Shown here: piece after piece, positions 12,250-61,441 of the stretch | Position numbering within the stretch: the stretch's first letter is position 1 | How the letters are laid out: every line of letters begins with the position of its first letter | Source of the DNA: a bacterium | GTDB lineage: Bacteria; Methylomirabilota; Methylomirabilia; CAVQYV01 | Direction of reading: 5' to 3' | DNA length: 64,000 nucleotides | Assembly (NCBI GenBank): GCA_043800755.1 | Contig: JAZDMQ010000034.1 | Span: 2,656-66,655, forward strand | The notes under the pieces: model-generated | What the model was told of the DNA's origin: nothing | Seen by the model: only the letters and a program-made list of their open reading frames with translations | Databases searched by the model: none | Program-made: the position numbers and the translations under genes

Positions 12250-13515
12250 TCAATCATAGACAACAATGACCCTTGATTTCTCCAGGAAATTGGAGACGGA
12301 GACCGCGGCCACGATGGTGGCCGCATCCGGATCGGGAATGACGACATCGGTCCTCTCTTTGCCCACCGCCTTGATCCCCTTCACCAGGAGCGGCTTGTCG
12401 GTAACCCGGATATTCCGCTGGGCAGCGGAAACATCCTTGGCGTAACCCACCAGTCCTTGCTCCAGGGCACTCTGTCGGCCAACCTGTCTGGTGCTGTAAA
12501 CCTCATTGCCCCCTTCATCGAAGATGCGGGGAAGCAAGGCGGGTTTCAGGCCCAGGCCTCGCGCATCAACCACCAGGCCGGTGGCCATCACCGGGGCAGG
12601 GGTGGGGGGCAGCTTTGCCTCGACCGGCTTCTTCTCCTCCGGGGCAGGAACCTTTTTCTCCTCTGTCTTTCCTGCAACTGACGGAGGCTGTGTCGGGGAG
12701 ACCTCAGGCCGGAGAGGTACGGGAGGCTGAGTAGGGGCAACCTCGGGAGCCGGCGATGCCTTCTCCGTAGCGGGGCGGCCGACGACTTCGGTTTTCTTGG
12801 CGGACGGTTCCCCTTCCCGCTTTTCGGCCGGCGAGGGGGACGAGGACTCAATCTTGGGACGGACTTCCTCCTTCTTCCCCTCCTCTCTTGCCGCCTTGGG
12901 CACGGCGGAGGGGGCTGTTGCGATCGGAGTCGGCTCTTTGAGCGCCTCCTTGGCCGGAGGAGCAGTCTGCTCCCTCATCGCCGGGGGAGCCTGGCTGGCT
13001 GGCTTCTCTGGAGGCCGCTTTTCCCGGGGGGGGGAAGGCAAGGCCGGAGTGGCCAAGAAGAGGGAGGTGGGCATCAAGATCGAGGCCAGCTCCCCCCTCA
13101 CATAGACCCCGACCGTCACTTCGATGGAGCCATCGGAAAAGTATTTGGTTTGCATCACCTGGGAACCTTGAAGGATGCCGCTTACTTGAGTTTTGATGAC
13201 ATCGCTCGAGACAATGAAATTCTCCACCGTGGTGGCTGAGTCGATCCTGACCCCCTTGAGAACCTCCAAGAGGTTGCGGCGGGCGACCGTTATCGCCGCC
13301 CTCTGGGTCATGGCCCGGACCTGGGCCGGGTTCTTGAGATCTTTGGGAGGGGCCCCAATGCCGTTGGCGGTCAGGAGCCCCAAGCTCCAGTTGATCCTTC
13401 CCTCCCCCACATTCTCAATCAGGTCCGCCGCCCAGGAGGCGGGAGCCTGCAATAGGAGCAAAGAAAGCCACAACAACGCGCTGAGCAGGGCTCTCCAGGA
13501 AAGATCCTTCCTCAT
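12250..13515 (-). CDS. secreted proline-rich repeat protein (hypothetical)
   Basis: Signal peptide MRKDLSWRALLSALLWLSLLLLQAPASWA. ~170-aa Pro/Ala/Glu/Lys-rich linker with repeats (PEVAPTQPPVP / PEVSPTQPPSV). Structured N- and C-terminal domains. Confidence 0.5.
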   Translation of the reverse strand: MRKDLSWRALLSALLWLSLLLLQAPASWAADLIENVGEGRINWSLGLLTANGIGAPPKDLKNPAQVRAMTQRAAITVARRNLLEVLKGVRIDSATTVENFIVSSDVIKTQVSGILQGSQVMQTKYFSDGSIEVTVGVYVRGELASILMPTSLFLATPALPSPPREKRPPEKPASQAPPAMREQTAPPAKEALKEPTPIATAPSAVPKAAREEGKKEEVRPKIESSSPSPAEKREGEPSAKKTEVVGRPATEKASPAPEVAPTQPPVPLRPEVSPTQPPSVAGKTEEKKVPAPEEKKPVEAKLPPTPAPVMATGLVVDARGLGLKPALLPRIFDEGGNEVYSTRQVGRQSALEQGLVGYAKDVSAAQRNIRVTDKPLLVKGIKAVGKERTDVVIPDPDAATIVAAVSVSNFLEKSRVIVVYD

Positions 13516-41662: not shown

Positions 41663-42610
41663 TCAAGGGACTTCTCCCCTGGTGGCGAAGGGAAGGCCTT
41701 CCAGATAGCTCATGGCGGAATGGGCGGCCAGGGCACCTTCCCCCACCGCAGTCGCGATCTGGCGAAAGGATTTCCTCCGACAATCCCCGGCCGCAAAAAC
41801 GCCTGGACAAGAGGTCTGAAGCCCCTCATCGGTGAGGACAAAACCCTGATCGTCGAGCGAGAGGACCCCTTGCCAGAGGGCGGTATTGGGACGACTGCCC
41901 ACGCAGACGAAGATCCCCTTCACAGAAAGCTCTCTCACCTCCTGGCTGATCCGATCGACCGCCAAGACGCCCTCCACCTTTTCATCCCCCAGGATCTCTC
42001 TGACCTGGCCATTCCATAAGAAGTCAATCTTCTCATTCTCCCTGGCCCGTTCCTCCAAGACCTTCGCCGCGCGCAGGCGATCGCGCCGATGGATCAGGGT
42101 CACCTTGGAGGCAAACCGGGTGAGGAAGAGGGCCTCCTCCAGGGCAGTGTCTCCACCTCCTACGACCGCGACCGGAAGATCTTTGAAAAACGCCCCATCA
42201 CAGGTCGCACAATAGGAGACTCCTTTCCCCCGCAGCCGATCCTCTCCGGGAACTCCCAGACGGGCGTAGTCCGCTCCGGCGGCCACAATGGCCGATCGGC
42301 ACGAAAACCTCCCTTCCGCGGTCAGGATCTCCAAGCCCCCCTCGGCCCGCCGGCATCCGGTCACTTCCTGGATTCGGATCTTCAGGCCAAAGCGCTCCGC
42401 CTGATTGGCCATCCGACTGACCAGCTCAAAGCCCCCGATCCCTTCAGGGAATCCGGGATAATTCTCCACCCAGTGGGTGGTGAGGACCTGCCCGCCCAGT
42501 CCCTGGCGCTCCAGGAGAAGGCAATTCAGGCGCGCACGGGCGGCATAGAGGCCAACGGTCAGCCCAGCCGGACCTCCCCCCACAATGATCAGATCGTAGC
42601 GCTCTTCCAT
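41663..42610 (-). CDS. trxB: thioredoxin-disulfide reductase
   Basis: GGGPAG FAD motif, redox-active CATC, NADPH motif GGGDTA, 315 aa. Confidence 0.9.
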   Translation of the reverse strand: MEERYDLIIVGGGPAGLTVGLYAARARLNCLLLERQGLGGQVLTTHWVENYPGFPEGIGGFELVSRMANQAERFGLKIRIQEVTGCRRAEGGLEILTAEGRFSCRSAIVAAGADYARLGVPGEDRLRGKGVSYCATCDGAFFKDLPVAVVGGGDTALEEALFLTRFASKVTLIHRRDRLRAAKVLEERARENEKIDFLWNGQVREILGDEKVEGVLAVDRISQEVRELSVKGIFVCVGSRPNTALWQGVLSLDDQGFVLTDEGLQTSCPGVFAAGDCRRKSFRQIATAVGEGALAAHSAMSYLEGLPFATRGEVP

Positions 42611-42703: not shown

Positions 42704-44233
42704 TTAGAAGCTGAATATACAGTTAGCCCTCATCACATAGCCCCAACTCGGAGAAGAGGTCTTCTCCACCTCGCTAAGGGTGCTGTTGTCGGGATTGGCT
42801 GCATCAAGGTACTCAACATGTTCGCTACCCTTGGCCACCTTGAAGTAATCCCCAGGAATAAACGGGGCAAAGGCACCGGTGACCGAGAAGTTCTTGTTGA
42901 GGGTCCACTTGGCGGTCAGGTCAATCTCCCAGCCCACATCGCGGTCCTGCTTCTTCTTGTAGATGATCCGGCTGTCGGGATCGAAGCCGCCCTTCGGGGT
43001 GACCTGGGCAGCCCAGATCTTAAAGATGTCCACGCCTAGGGTGACCGGGGTGATCGGGGTATAGGTGGCACCGATCGTCAGATAGATCTGGTTCTCCAGG
43101 CCCCTCTGAGTCCATACCCCAGTGCGCTTCTCTCCTTTGTTATCCAGTCCGCCGCCGAATCCGGGGGCGAAGTCGAAGGGATCGCCCTGGCCGTGCTGAT
43201 GGAAGAAGCTCCACTCATCATAGACGACGGTGCGGCCCCATTGGGCCATGGGGACCTTGAATCCCTCATACTTGGTGCCAGAGCCCCAGTTCTTCACGTC
43301 GCCATCGAGCTTTTTCCGCTTGTCACCCGAGCCATAGGCCCCTTCAAAGGTCACCGTGGCCGGGCCCAAATTGGCGGTGACACCCGCCATGAGGGCATAG
43401 CCGCCGATCTTTTCCTCTTGTTGCATGTCGGTCTTCTTGAAGTCATCGGTCAGCTTACCGCCGACATAGGCCGCCTCCGCCCGGTAGCTGATCATGTCAA
43501 TCGCCCCATCGGCCGAGATTCCGAGGGCCCAGATGTGGCTATCGAAGGTGATGGAGGGATCCCACATCGTGAACATATGGTCATAACCACCCAACTGCCT
43601 GCTGGTGGCATTACTGTTGATGTTCAGGTTCCGGCCCTCGAACCACTGGAAGTAGCCGCCAACCTGGTGCTTCTCCGCCAGGGGGGCCGTCGCCTGGAAG
43701 AAGTACTGGTCGATGTCATTGGCGAAATCGCCCTGCTCGTTATACTTCATATAGCCGAGTTCGACCTTGGCCGGGCCGATCGGGGCATAAAACTTCATGC
43801 CGTCTCCGCCATACGCCCCGGTGTTCATCACGAAGCCATGGCCCAAGGATTGGGCGAAACGTCCCAGTCGATAGTGCACCGGGGTGCCAGGGATCTTGAC
43901 ATCAAACCAGACCTGTTGCAGGGAGACGGGGTGAGATTCGCCGTTGGGCGCTTCCCCCGCATAGTCTGCCCCACCCAGGGCATATCCGCCACCCAAGGTA
44001 CCCAGCCGGAAGTACCCCTCTGCATAATCCTCTGCCTTGTAGCCTGCCCCGACCCAGAGAATGGGAAGGATACGGGCATCGTTGGTGTTGGGATTGTCCT
44101 TCAGAAAATCCGTGTTATAGTAGATTCTTGGCCGATAGAAAACCAACCCATCGATATAGGTCTCGGCGAAGAGGGGGGCGGCGATTGCCAGGATTAGGAG
44201 CCCAGCAAATAGAGCTACCGCATACTTTTTCAT
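42704..44233 (-). CDS. outer-membrane beta-barrel protein (porin-like, hypothetical)
   Basis: Signal peptide MKKYAVALFAGLLILAIAAPLFA. Gly/Tyr/aromatic-rich alternating pattern. C-terminal Phe (..CIFSF). Confidence 0.5.
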   Translation of the reverse strand: MKKYAVALFAGLLILAIAAPLFAETYIDGLVFYRPRIYYNTDFLKDNPNTNDARILPILWVGAGYKAEDYAEGYFRLGTLGGGYALGGADYAGEAPNGESHPVSLQQVWFDVKIPGTPVHYRLGRFAQSLGHGFVMNTGAYGGDGMKFYAPIGPAKVELGYMKYNEQGDFANDIDQYFFQATAPLAEKHQVGGYFQWFEGRNLNINSNATSRQLGGYDHMFTMWDPSITFDSHIWALGISADGAIDMISYRAEAAYVGGKLTDDFKKTDMQQEEKIGGYALMAGVTANLGPATVTFEGAYGSGDKRKKLDGDVKNWGSGTKYEGFKVPMAQWGRTVVYDEWSFFHQHGQGDPFDFAPGFGGGLDNKGEKRTGVWTQRGLENQIYLTIGATYTPITPVTLGVDIFKIWAAQVTPKGGFDPDSRIIYKKKQDRDVGWEIDLTAKWTLNKNFSVTGAFAPFIPGDYFKVAKGSEHVEYLDAANPDNSTLSEVEKTSSPSWGYVMRANCIFSF

Positions 44234-58382: not shown

Positions 58383-59753
58383 TTGCTGGCCACGGGATAT
58401 GGTCGCATCTTGAGCTATTCCCTTGCCTCCAACCTGAAGGCGGAGGAGGTGCGAAGAGCGGCCCTGGGACGGCTGACCTCCCGAGGACAGAAGAACGACA
58501 TTCGGGGGATTCGCCTCGCCTTCGTCCCCTTCTATCGGCTGACCGGCCTCGATTTCTCCTGGAGTTGGAAAGACAAGGAGATCACCTCCCCCTTGTTGGA
58601 GACCCCTCACGCCAGCAACGCGGCCCTGGGGATCCTCCGCTTCGGGGAGGAGGCCTTGAAAAACCCCAACGGCGGACCCCTTCCCCCCCTCAAGGAGAAG
58701 GAATATCTCCTCACCTCAATCTACCTGGATCGCACCTTCCTGGCCGCGGACTTGCCCTCCCTGAGCCTCCGCTCCTTAGGGGTGCGCTCCCAGGTGCGCA
58801 CCCTTCATCTCTTCGATCCGGAAGCGCTATCGCGAGAAGGACAAGTGATCCCGGTGACCATGGACTGGAAGGAGGCCTGGAATCGCATAGAAACGGGCCT
58901 GCCCCTCGAAAACCTGACCCGGCGGCTGCTCATCAACCGGATCCTCTCCTTGGTCTTCTTCCCTCTATGGGAGGTTCAGGTCGATTCCGGGGCAAGGACC
59001 TCCTCCCTCCTCTTCGACGGCGTCGCCCGGTCTTTTCTCCAAGAGGAGGCGGCCTCTCGCTTCTTTTCGGAGTCTCCGGCCGGCAGCGGCTTCTCCGCCC
59101 AAACCCTGCGCTTCCGACCCCTGGCTTGCCCGAACTGCGGCGGAGGCCTCCCCGTGGATCGGGACTTTCGCCTCTTCTCCTGTCCCACCTGTCATCGGCT
59201 CTGGCATATCAAGGGGGACGAATTCGAAAATCTCCCCTACCGCCTGGCGGAGGCGCCCAAGAGGCTCGATCCGCGCCAGGTGCATTATCTACCCTTCTGG
59301 ATCTTCCTGGGACAGGTCCACCTCGAAGGAAGAACCATTGCCAGCAAATATGACCTCGCTCAGCTCGCTCCCCAGGCGCGTCTCCTGCGTGAGGAGGATA
59401 AGGCGATCCCGCTCCGCTTCTTCGTCCCGGCCTTCAAGGTCCGGGACCTTTCAGTGGCCAATCGCCTCTCCACCTCCTTCACCCGCATGCAGCCGCTCTT
59501 CCAAGTCAAGGAGCCCAGCGGGGAATCGCTCCATCCTGGCGGGGTCCTGGATCGAGATGAGGCAGCCACCTTCGCCCACCTTTCCCTGGTCTCCATCACC
59601 CCCAAGGGAAATCCCAAGCTGGTGGAGCGAGTGGCTCAAGCTGAGCTCACCCTCTCCCCGGGCGAGCTGGTCTTCTTTCCCTTTCAAGATCATCTGGATT
59701 CGCTGCGGGAGGACTTCCTCGGCACCGCGATCCACAAAGCGACGCTCCGTTAG
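58383..59753 (+). CDS. hypothetical protein with two zinc-ribbon-headed repeated modules (true start probably upstream, non-canonical)
   Basis: Track ORF from TTG 58383. In-frame upstream codons encode CPQCGGELNFDEGSNAVQCRFCGS with no ATG/GTG/TTG before it. A second ribbon, CPNCGGGLPVDRDFRLFSCPTCH, occurs mid-protein. The two halves share motifs. Confidence 0.4.
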   Translation: MLATGYGRILSYSLASNLKAEEVRRAALGRLTSRGQKNDIRGIRLAFVPFYRLTGLDFSWSWKDKEITSPLLETPHASNAALGILRFGEEALKNPNGGPLPPLKEKEYLLTSIYLDRTFLAADLPSLSLRSLGVRSQVRTLHLFDPEALSREGQVIPVTMDWKEAWNRIETGLPLENLTRRLLINRILSLVFFPLWEVQVDSGARTSSLLFDGVARSFLQEEAASRFFSESPAGSGFSAQTLRFRPLACPNCGGGLPVDRDFRLFSCPTCHRLWHIKGDEFENLPYRLAEAPKRLDPRQVHYLPFWIFLGQVHLEGRTIASKYDLAQLAPQARLLREEDKAIPLRFFVPAFKVRDLSVANRLSTSFTRMQPLFQVKEPSGESLHPGGVLDRDEAATFAHLSLVSITPKGNPKLVERVAQAELTLSPGELVFFPFQDHLDSLREDFLGTAIHKATLR

Positions 59754-59760
59754 GGGTCCA

Positions 59761-60255
59761 ATGAGGATTCATTTTCAATCCCTAAGATCGGAAAAGGATG
59801 GGCCGGCGGGCCTGGTGCTCGGTTGTCTTTTGATTGGCCTGCTCGGTCTGGCGGCCGGACTGGGCTTCAATTCCCTGCGGTCCTCCCCCCTGCCCTTAAT
59901 CCCCCCTTTTCTCCTCGCCTCCCCCTACCCGGAGGCCGGACCGGATCAGGCGCAGGAATGGGCCGAGGAGGGCAGGGTCCTCTTTCTGGACAGTCGTCCT
60001 CATGCGCAATACAAGAAGGCCCATCTGCCCCAGGCGGTGAGCCTCCCGGTGAAGGACTTTCCTGCCCTCTATCCGGTGCTCAGTCCGCTCTTCCCTGCAG
60101 AGGGATGGATCGTCATTTACGGGGAGGGCGGAGGGTGGCCCACGGAGAGGGAACTGGCCCATCTCTTCCGGAAGGCGGGGATGGAGAGGGTCAAGGTGTT
60201 GGCCGGGGGGTTCCGTGCCTGGAAGGAGAGGGGCTTTCGAGTGGAGGGGAGATAG
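59761..60255 (+). CDS. membrane-anchored rhodanese-homology-domain protein lacking the catalytic Cys
   Basis: ATG at 59761. N-terminal TM LVLGCLLIGLLGLAAG. Rhodanese fold (VLFLDSRPHAQYKKAHLPQAVSLP...AGGFRAWKERG) with IVIYGEGGGWPT where the Cys loop is expected. Confidence 0.6.
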   Translation: MRIHFQSLRSEKDGPAGLVLGCLLIGLLGLAAGLGFNSLRSSPLPLIPPFLLASPYPEAGPDQAQEWAEEGRVLFLDSRPHAQYKKAHLPQAVSLPVKDFPALYPVLSPLFPAEGWIVIYGEGGGWPTERELAHLFRKAGMERVKVLAGGFRAWKERGFRVEGR

Positions 60256-60258
60256 AGG

Positions 60259-60762
60259 ATGAATCAAGGCCGGCCTGATTCCTGGCGCAGAAGAATACTC
60301 CACTTTTTGAAAAGCCCCTACCTGGCTGCGCTACTGCGGATCATCCTGGGCGCCCTTTTCCTCGAGGCGAGCTGGGATAAGATCCTGCATCCGGCTCGAT
60401 TTGCCGAGGATGTGGCCAACTACGCTATCCTCCCCCCTTTGTTGGTCAACTTGTGGGCCCTCGTCCTCCCCTGGCTGGAGATGATCGCCGGCCTCTCTCT
60501 CATCCTGGGCCTCCTCTCCCGGAGCAGCGCCCTGGTCCTCTCTGCCCTCCTGGTCAGCTTCATCATTGGCATCTCCATCAATATCGCCCGAGGGGCGGAG
60601 ATCGACTGCGGCTGTTTTGGCGCCGGGGAAGAGCTCGGCTGGATCAGCCTATTCCGGGATCTCCTGTTCCTAGCCATGGGGATCCAGATCCTCTTCTGCG
60701 ATCGGGGCTTCCTGGGATTGGATTCTCTGTGGAGAAAACGGGGGGTGGAAAAGGAGGGGTAG
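60259..60762 (+). CDS. DoxX/MauE-family membrane protein
   Basis: 167 aa, four TM. ILGALFLEASWDKILHP...WLEMIAGLSLILGLL. CGCFG motif typical of MauE/DoxX-like proteins. Confidence 0.65.
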   Translation: MNQGRPDSWRRRILHFLKSPYLAALLRIILGALFLEASWDKILHPARFAEDVANYAILPPLLVNLWALVLPWLEMIAGLSLILGLLSRSSALVLSALLVSFIIGISINIARGAEIDCGCFGAGEELGWISLFRDLLFLAMGIQILFCDRGFLGLDSLWRKRGVEKEG

Positions 60763-60862
60763 AAAAGGGATTGCTTTGGGGTCGGTTTTGTGTTTTGCTC
60801 ATTGGATCCAGGATGGGATTTCTGGCAAGGGATTTTCGACGATAGCAAAGGAGGGATGGGTC

Positions 60863-61441
60863 ATGGCGAAACAGGTCCCCTGGGAAACCATTATAGAGGT
60901 CGCCTTGGACCGAAGCACCAAGGAACAGAAGCCGATCTTCGTTGATTTCTGGTTCGATGGCTGAATTGGCTGCAAATTTATGAATACGGATTCGTATTCA
61001 CAGGACAAGGTGGTCGGTTTCTTGGTGGAGAACTTCATCCCCGTCCGCAGCCAGTGCTTCTTTGACCACTTTACGGCGATGATGCGGCGGTATCAGGTGA
61101 AATGGACCCCGACCTTCGTGGTCCTGGATCCGGACGGAAGGGAGCACCACCGGGTGGTGGGATTCCTCCCGCCCGAGGACTTCATGGCCCAGTTGCAGTT
61201 GGGAAAGGCCAAGCTCTACTACGATCAGGATCGGCTAGACAAGGCCGCTTCCGAGCTCCAGATCGTAATTGACCGCTTTCCCCAGACGGCGGCCGCGGAG
61301 GAGGCCATCTTCCTCCTGGGCGTCTCCGGCTACAAGCGTACCCATCAGGCCGGGGAATTGAAAAAGGCTTGGGAGAGGCTCTCCCGGGATTATCCCGCGA
61401 GCGAGTGGAGCAAGAGGGCCCGGCCCTATTCGGCCCTGTAG
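60863..61441 (+). CDS. thioredoxin-fold (Thioredoxin_7/DsbD-gamma-like) protein with in-frame UGA at 60962 (candidate selenocysteine, UxxC motif) and a C-terminal TPR-like region
   Basis: Track ORFs 60776..60964 and 60980..61441 are in the same frame, separated only by TGA. Read-through gives KPIFVDFWFDG-U-IGCKFMNTDSYSQDKVVGFLVENFIPV, aligning to KPvlVDFtADWCgWCK...F.dpeV...L...FV.v. The UGA sits at the first Cys of CxxC. AAGGAGGG RBS before ATG 60863. Confidence 0.55.
60981..61000 (+). promoter_or_regulatory. SECIS-like hairpin downstream of the in-frame UGA
   Basis: UGAAUACG-GAUU-CGUAUUCA, an 8-bp stem with apical loop GAUU (G at loop position 1). Begins 17 nt after the UGA, apical loop ~25 nt after, within the range reported for bacterial SECIS elements. 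Confidence 0.35.

Follow-up and report, generated by a model that had tools for sequence, protein, structure and literature searches.

The 64,000-nucleotide window analyzed here (assembly GCA_043800755.1, contig JAZDMQ010000034.1; all coordinates refer to this whole stretch unless a related locus is named) carries a thioredoxin-fold gene that is split by an in-frame TGA and followed by a selenocysteine insertion sequence (SECIS)-type hairpin. Two open reading frames (ORFs), 60776..60964 and 60980..61441, lie in one frame, and the only break between them is the TGA at 60962-60964. An earlier reading made from the letters of the window (here, the sequence-only reading) had described exactly this arrangement and had taken the TGA as a codon for selenocysteine (Sec, U). 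Its read-through across the TGA, ...KPIFVDFWFDG[U]..., was reproduced exactly (...KPIFVDFWFDG*IGCKFMNTDSYSQDKVV...). The span that it gave to the gene, 60776-61441, stands at its end and not at its start. Because a Shine-Dalgarno-like GGAGGG precedes the ATG at 60863 by 7 nt and because the N terminus MAKQ[VI]PWET is common to the loci of the candidate division NC10 clade (L008, L019, L020, and L021), this ATG is most likely the true start, as judged from the sequence; the TTG at 60776 is unlikely, since the MAKQ[VI]PWET of the relatives points to the ATG at 60863. The coding sequence that begins there (Table 1) encodes MAKQVPWETIIEVALDRSTKEQKPIFVDFWFDGUIGCKFM...RARPYSAL, in which the U is followed by IGCKFMNTDSY. 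Full-length Cys homologues of 186 to 192 aa align with this product end to end.

We scanned genome and metagenome collections for relatives of this gene and recovered 47 loci in total, 43 of which belong to the family and include the site. The site codon is TGA at 37 of the 43, represented by 28 distinct 69-nt sequences, and TGC, giving CIGC, at the other six (L010, L024, L025, L030, L032, and L043); neither TAA nor TAG occurs there at any of the 43 covering loci. The TGA loci belong to NC10/Methylomirabilota and to several Desulfobacterota lineages, come from independent samples, and reach down to identities of 36-40%. The closest named genome match is an NC10 (Methylomirabilota) metagenome-assembled genome (MAG) at 85% identity, and the others are Desulfobacterota or "Deltaproteobacteria" MAGs. 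Conservation at the protein level extends over both sides of the UGA, covering the N-terminal 33 residues (with W7, A14, and KPIL.DF) and the C-terminal 158. Of the findings that the sequence-only reading had named as speaking against it, two were not borne out: family members do not naturally end at this site, as six Cys orthologues (CIGC) read through it, and the TGA is not a sequencing error, as the 28 distinct sequences that carry it come from independent samples and phyla.

Public annotation of the family follows the interruption. Our first protein search returned 14 homologues, all of about 153 aa and all beginning at the Met after the TGA, suggesting systematic truncation by gene callers. 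An exact look-up gave no record for the 153-aa ORF of the window itself. At the DNA level, distant homologues (40-53% identity) have a short upstream ORF that ends exactly 15 nt before the called start, and in-frame read-through of these loci gives PG-*-IGC, HM-*-IGC, PN-*-IGC, and DG-*-IGC. A profile of Sec and Cys forms retrieved 817 relatives in two length classes, one of about 186-192 aa (Cys forms, plus some Ser variants) and one of about 150 aa, cut at the UGA. At least 39 full-length Cys forms are present among the protein matches listed. A library of representatives at 50% identity contains 219 matching proteins at E<=1e-30, and at least 34 of its best 150 matches begin exactly after the Sec position. 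The family-wide matches also include Ser variants at the Sec/Cys position (SIGC, SMGC, SVGC, and SLGC) and one Ala variant; the Ser variants are paralleled by E. coli CnoX, which has an SxxC motif. Two NC10-clade copies (L023 794-1147 and L044 1713-1895) match only from residue ~75 (…NLKWTPTFLVLD…) onward, with unrelated sequence and a stop codon upstream of the matching part, and could be truncated gene remnants or assembly chimeras.

The hairpin that the sequence-only reading had placed at 60982..60999, GAAUACG-GAUU-CGUAUUC with G as its first loop base, was confirmed and extends by one U-A pair to 8 bp. The complete element at 60981-61000, UGAAUACG-GAUU-CGUAUUCA, begins 16 nt downstream of the UGA, has a folding energy of -8.4 kcal/mol, and places its loop 24 nt from the UGA. 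The 8-bp stem, the 4-nt loop starting with G, the 24-nt spacing, and the energy of -8.4 kcal/mol agree with all four published criteria for bacterial SECIS elements (PMC13188914). When the region was recoded synonymously, keeping the same peptide and the codon usage of the window, only 4 of 5000 recodings folded as stably; the hairpin is more than chance. We also considered an extended lower SECIS stem, which was rejected: minimum free energy folds of individual sequences pair the UGA region with downstream sequence, and RNAalifold gave this pairing no conserved support.

An alignment of 27 distinct Sec-form sequences was used to look for covariation. The conserved core of the stem comprises 6 bp (60982-60987 with 60994-60999), and this six-pair helix (alignment columns 30-35 with 42-47) is paired in all 27 sequences. 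Switches between G-C and A-U that change both sides of a pair are found at pair 31-46 in seven sequences and at pair 32-45 in nine, with G-U intermediates. The first loop base (G37 in the alignment, G 60989 in the window) is invariant, though its codon encodes D, V, or G. With all eight pairs of the structure, pairing holds in 88% of cells, compared with 21-58% after a shift of the 3' partner by one to three columns, and none of 500 column shuffles reached the observed pairing or covariation score.

The Cys forms differ from the Sec forms in this region, with a mean hairpin energy of -5.6 kcal/mol compared with -10.1 kcal/mol. Decay is seen in four of the six Cys forms: L010, L025, and L043 no longer have the hairpin, and that of L024 is weakened. 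One cluster at 90% identity contains both a Sec form, L049, whose hairpin is intact and whose peptide reads VTYPD, and the Cys form L024 (protein P0015), with VTFPD, in which the Y-to-F change (UAC to UUU) breaks a pair of the SECIS stem. From their sequences, this pair appears to record a very recent Sec/Cys switch, after which the hairpin has already begun to decay. The SECIS assignment made in the sequence-only reading is thus supported by the fit to the published bacterial model, by covariation in the Sec forms, and by degradation in the Cys forms.

With U replaced by C, the window protein matches three Pfam models above their cut-offs: Thioredoxin_2 (PF13098; 6e-12, 46.3 bits against a cut-off of 27), Thioredox_DsbH (3.8e-8), and Thioredoxin_7 (5.3e-8). 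Thioredoxin_7, which the sequence-only reading had named together with DsbD-gamma as the pattern of this gene, is among these, and Thioredoxin_2 is the best Pfam match. The earlier description of a thioredoxin-fold gene also holds, and it overlooked a second, C-terminal helical domain at residues ~107-186 that resembles tetratricopeptide repeats (TPR) and BamD; within residues 107-186, Pfam YfiO (3e-4) and TPR_6 (4e-4) match below their cut-offs. We modelled P0022, the closest full-length Cys homologue (47-48% identical), with AlphaFold2 (predicted local distance difference test, 97.2; predicted template modelling score, 0.91). The model has a thioredoxin fold with the CxxC at the N terminus of helix 35-44, positions 34 and 37 lying directly before this helix and at its beginning. 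The invariant W-T-P loop precedes strand 81-85, five to six helices cover residues 101-188, and no membrane segments are present in the model. A Foldseek search against the PDB matched DsbD-gamma to the thioredoxin domain with template modelling (TM) scores of 0.69-0.74. The family profile places the thioredoxin domain closest to 2kuc and DsbD-gamma (1.8e-13 to 1e-10, with DsbD-gamma at about 1e-10 to 1e-11) and the tail closest to CpoB (2.6e-10), YbgF, and BamD.

Most members of the family start ~33 residues before the U and do not have a signal peptide. A homologue at L004 6891-7541 carries an N-terminal signal peptide (VSNKKRWVGLGLFLIFLLGQAIPAAAAE) and, judged from this sequence, would be exported as a selenoprotein, whereas the family is mostly leaderless and presumably cytoplasmic.

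The conservation of the TGA, the Cys orthologues, the behavior of the SECIS-type hairpin, and the thioredoxin fold support the selenoprotein interpretation of the sequence-only reading. With high confidence, we read 60863-61441 as one gene for a 192-residue cytoplasmic selenoprotein with a DsbD-gamma-like thioredoxin fold, in which the UGA is decoded via the SECIS.

Every gene caller annotates the region in another way, with the UGA as a genuine stop between two genes, one for a 33- (or 62-) residue peptide and one for a 153-residue protein starting at the ATG at 60980. The 14 first-round homologues and dozens found later are called in the same manner, as proteins of about 150 aa from the post-TGA Met, and this ATG is conserved. 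The Met, however, belongs to a C-x-x-C-[KQ]-[QF]-M motif that is present in the uninterrupted Cys forms too, so its conservation is no evidence of a start. Further, no Shine-Dalgarno sequence precedes 60980, and the 153-aa product would, according to the structural model, be without strand beta-1 and the whole active site. A genuine stop also fits poorly with an interrupting codon that is TGA at 37 of 37 loci and never TAA or TAG, and with an upstream segment of 33 residues that is conserved as protein at 36-40% overall identity. We consider two separate genes to be very unlikely.

Similarly improbable is read-through of the UGA without selenocysteine, by near-cognate insertion of Trp or Cys or under a code in which TGA is reassigned. 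Eleven "WIGC" database entries do carry W at the site, but the entry that we checked (P0016, from L048 190-759) has a TGA codon there that was translated under an alternative table. These entries (P0016 and ten others) apparently reflect an alternative genetic code chosen for short contigs, yielding a spurious active-site W. Among the ordinary stops of the window, TGA is the most frequent, ending 13 of the 29 confident genes, so the code is standard and not reassigned. Moreover, a UGA at the catalytic Cys combined with a structure that fits the SECIS model is the signature of selenocysteine and not of leaky termination. Finally, a pseudogene or a sequencing or assembly error (TGA for TGC or TGT) would take a single base change, TGC to TGA, in a family that has Cys forms, but the comparative sequence data effectively refute this explanation, to which we give almost no weight: many independent metagenomes and MAGs contribute to the 28 distinct sequences with this TGA, the reading frame continues unbroken before and after it, and a hairpin that covaries follows.

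Several observations count against the selenoprotein reading or against its finer points. The both-sided changes in the hairpin appear, from the sequences, to represent about two or three clade-level events and not 16. Two Cys forms, L030 and L032, retain the hairpin, so the MDAVTYP peptide could explain part of its conservation. The second loop base is A in the window, where the model commonly has G or U; if the closing G-C pair were opened, the loop would start with GG. ARAGORN detected no tRNA-Sec in 14 longer related loci, and none of selA, selB, and selD was recognized by NCBIfam among the 30 large ORFs of the window. With these genes absent from the window and the related loci, we infer the Sec machinery from comparative and published evidence. 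Any function beyond that of a redox thioredoxin fold is suggested by analogy, and no gene neighbor is conserved across clades among the related loci that could point to one.

In the 64-kb window, neither ARAGORN (tRNA) nor Rfam (at the gathering threshold) gave a match, and the genes present are those of a housekeeping chromosome (proAB, obg, rng, gap, pgk, polA, dnaJ, hrcA, and trxB). An AIRS-domain neighbor gene in L001 was examined as a SelD candidate and is ThiL. A search of the window for other TGA-interrupted genes gave 160 candidates, mostly out-of-frame noise, with only the TGA at 60962 convincing. Indirect support for a Sec machinery comes from the literature on the phylum and from one related locus. 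PMC13188914 reports, citing Deng et al. 2026, a Methylomirabilota MAG with 63 predicted selenoprotein genes, described as the largest bacterial selenoproteome reported so far, and Sec-type Group 4 hydrogenases are known in Methylomirabilota (PMC13582414). Among the related loci, the copy of the thioredoxin selenoprotein gene in L005 (of the lineage of L004 and L005) has, ~2 kb away, a canonical Sec site of FdhA, VDHCARL-TGA-HSSTVVG.

The data directly show how the gene is built, that Sec and Cys forms correspond, that the SECIS-type hairpin is conserved, and that UxxC takes the catalytic position of a thioredoxin fold; insertion of Se, redox direction, client, and reductant are inferred. Established thioredoxin and selenoprotein chemistry provides the steps of a possible mechanism. 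In translation, the UGA at 60962-60964 would be recoded to selenocysteine at codon 34 in a SelB-dependent manner, with the hairpin at 60981-61000 acting as a bacterial SECIS that recruits SelB-GTP-Sec-tRNA(Sec) to the ribosome and outcompetes release factor 2. The folded protein has U34-I-G-C37 at the N terminus of helix alpha-1, opposite the putative cis-Pro loop WTPT, followed by the TPR-like tail of ~80 residues. As in a thioredoxin-type reductase, the U34 selenolate could then attack a disulfide or another oxidized sulfur species of a client. C37 would resolve the mixed selenenylsulfide, leaving an intramolecular Se-S bond that an upstream reductant or reductase system would re-reduce, and the helical TPR-like tail may select the client or partner.

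Among known families, the selenoprotein family named "thiol:disulfide interchange protein" in 2004 shares several features with the family described here. According to two reviews (PMC13188914, PMC9312934), that family is characterized by PF13098 and UxxC, is represented by WP_011366075.1, and was reported by Kryukov & Gladyshev 2004 from Geobacter metallireducens, G. uraniireducens, and Syntrophus aciditrophicus. PF13098, which is the best Pfam match here, the UxxC motif, and a single Sec are common to both, as is the distribution in Desulfobacterota, with Geobacteraceae and Geomonas members in our family. Further, the 2004 name would fit, because the nearest solved relatives of the thioredoxin domain carry the deposited name "Thiol:disulfide interchange protein DsbD." A difference lies in the TPR-like tail of our family, which the reviews do not mention. 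Among the matches listed (the best 120 in each list), none is traceable to G. metallireducens, and no member among the matches listed is named a selenoprotein in public sources. A literature search for the UIGC and ULGC motifs and for a thioredoxin-TPR selenoprotein found nothing relevant.

We regard the chances that our family is the 2004 family as roughly even; the window gene is either the NC10 member of the family noted in 2004 or a member of an uncatalogued sister family. Tentatively, and with a probability somewhat below even, it could represent a widespread selenoprotein family that is undescribed as such and distinct from the 2004 family, with a "mini-CnoX" architecture of ~190 aa. Such a family would combine a DsbD-gamma-like thioredoxin domain bearing U-[ILV]-G-C with a CpoB/BamD-like TPR tail of two repeats. 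Sec would be dominant in Desulfobacterota and NC10, possibly as the ancestral state, and would flip to Cys and back between relatives that are >90% identical. By analogy, such proteins could serve as Sec-dependent client-specific reductases or chaperedoxins.

Solved structures point to two further groups. The thioredoxin domain has its closest solved counterparts, in fold and sequence, in the DsbD-gamma/DsbH-type domains (1vrs, 1uc7, 2fwf, 2ju5, and 2kuc), with Foldseek TM scores of 0.69-0.80, profile matches in the range given above, and the CxxC in the same place. The window protein differs from DsbD in having no membrane or alpha domains, mostly no signal peptide in its family, Sec in place of the first Cys, and an extra tail. 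Its assignment as a full DsbD was rejected: with 192 aa, it matches only the gamma domain of NF001419, at 42.3 bits for a cut-off of 330. CnoX/YbbN (3qou and 3qdn), which is also cytoplasmic and combines a thioredoxin domain with TPR helices, comes first in Foldseek over both domains. It is larger, with ~284 residues and a larger TPR domain, whereas our protein has ~190 residues and about two TPR-like repeats. Identity with CnoX/YbbN was rejected at 12-13% sequence identity, a root mean square deviation of 11-12 A, a query-normalized TM score of 0.43-0.44, and no match to the family model.

The best NCBIfam match is TsoB (NF045694), a protein of 572 aa with UxxxxU and two Sec residues (PMC13188914), and it involves only the C-terminal thioredoxin domain of that model (positions 456-569 of 572). 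TsoB is a rhodanese/DsbD fusion-like selenoprotein; in the window, genes for a rhodanese-like protein and a membrane protein are separate and lie just upstream. The window protein is not TsoB, scoring 49.8 bits against a cut-off of 805 and having 192 aa, a single Sec, and UxxC. DsbD ranks second after TsoB, and no NCBIfam model reached its cut-off for the window protein.

Thioredoxin-fold proteins with UxxC are the commonest kind of bacterial selenoprotein, and the biology of the window gene is therefore unsurprising. It is very probably a genuine, conserved thioredoxin-fold UxxC selenoprotein gene of this ordinary bacterial kind. Its practical value is mainly for annotation. In public databases, hundreds of entries for its relatives are ~150-residue fragments without the active site that go by "hypothetical protein" or "TPR repeat protein," and some other entries have Trp wrongly placed at the Sec position. 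No NCBIfam model covers the family; a curated model that takes Sec into account would put these entries right and add selenoproteins to the counts for NC10/Methylomirabilota and Desulfobacterota. Sec-to-Cys exchange and SECIS decay can also be followed cleanly in this family, as a natural series of Sec, Cys, and Ser forms that includes a Sec/Cys pair >90% identical.

Table 1. Features of the selenoprotein gene, its window, and related loci (coordinates are those of the window unless a locus is named)
Feature	Position	Strand	Details
Shine-Dalgarno-like GGAGGG	60850..60855	+	Seen in sequence; 7 nt 5' of ATG 60863
Complete selenoprotein coding sequence, 192 codons, UGA-Sec as codon 34	60863..61441	+	Stop TAG 61439-61441
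Thioredoxin-fold domain, residues ~20-110, DsbD-gamma/DsbH-like	60920..61192	+	Pfam, AlphaFold2 homologue model, Foldseek, profile
In-frame TGA, read as selenocysteine U34, first position of UxxC	60962..60964	+	TGA at 37 loci, TGC at 6
TGC, resolving cysteine C37 of U-I-G-C	60971..60973	+	Invariant in 61 aligned family members
Bacterial SECIS-type hairpin	60981..61000	+	Stem 60981-60988 with 60993-61000, 8 bp; loop GAUU 60989-60992
W-T-P-T, residues 81-84, thioredoxin-fold cis-proline loop (putative cis)	61103..61114	+	W81, T82, and P83 invariant in 61 sequences
C-terminal helical TPR-like tail, residues ~107-186, CpoB/YbgF- and BamD-like	61181..61420	+	Sub-cut-off Pfam, model, profile
Sec/Cys pair	L049 5893-6450 and L024 1074-1667 (P0015)		Same 90%-identity cluster
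Split formate dehydrogenase alpha-subunit gene	L005 2087-3889	-	Called as 56-aa and 539-aa ORFs
DoxX-family membrane protein gene	60259..60762	+	Weak NCBIfam matches to DoxX-type families
Thioredoxin-disulfide reductase TrxB	41663-42610	-	9.8e-112; ~19 kb from selenoprotein gene
456-aa ORF	58383-59753	+	No NCBIfam match
509-aa ORF	42704-44233	-	No NCBIfam match
421-aa ORF	12250-13515	-	No NCBIfam match

Directly upstream of the selenoprotein gene and on the same strand (59713-60762, +) are two genes, for a membrane-anchored rhodanese-homology protein and a DoxX-family membrane protein. The rhodanese-homology protein has Gly at the position of the catalytic Cys (…IVIYGEGGGWPTE…). The DoxX-family gene may be co-transcribed with the selenoprotein gene. 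Synteny of this gene, and of the trio of rhodanese, DoxX, and selenoprotein genes, is limited to L019 and L020, the closest relatives. The trio recalls both the rhodanese/DsbD-fusion selenoproteins (TsoB) and DoxX-sulfurtransferase complexes. In the Desulfobacterota clade, the family gene is flanked by macro-domain and universal-stress-protein-like genes, as read from their N-terminal sequences.

Elsewhere in the window, TrxB is a candidate recycling reductase, unlinked to the selenoprotein gene. The three large ORFs of 456, 509, and 421 aa gave no NCBIfam match at 1e-15. A zinc-ribbon-like motif, CPNCG…CPTC, is present in the first of these, which overlaps an ORF at 59338-60255 in a different frame.

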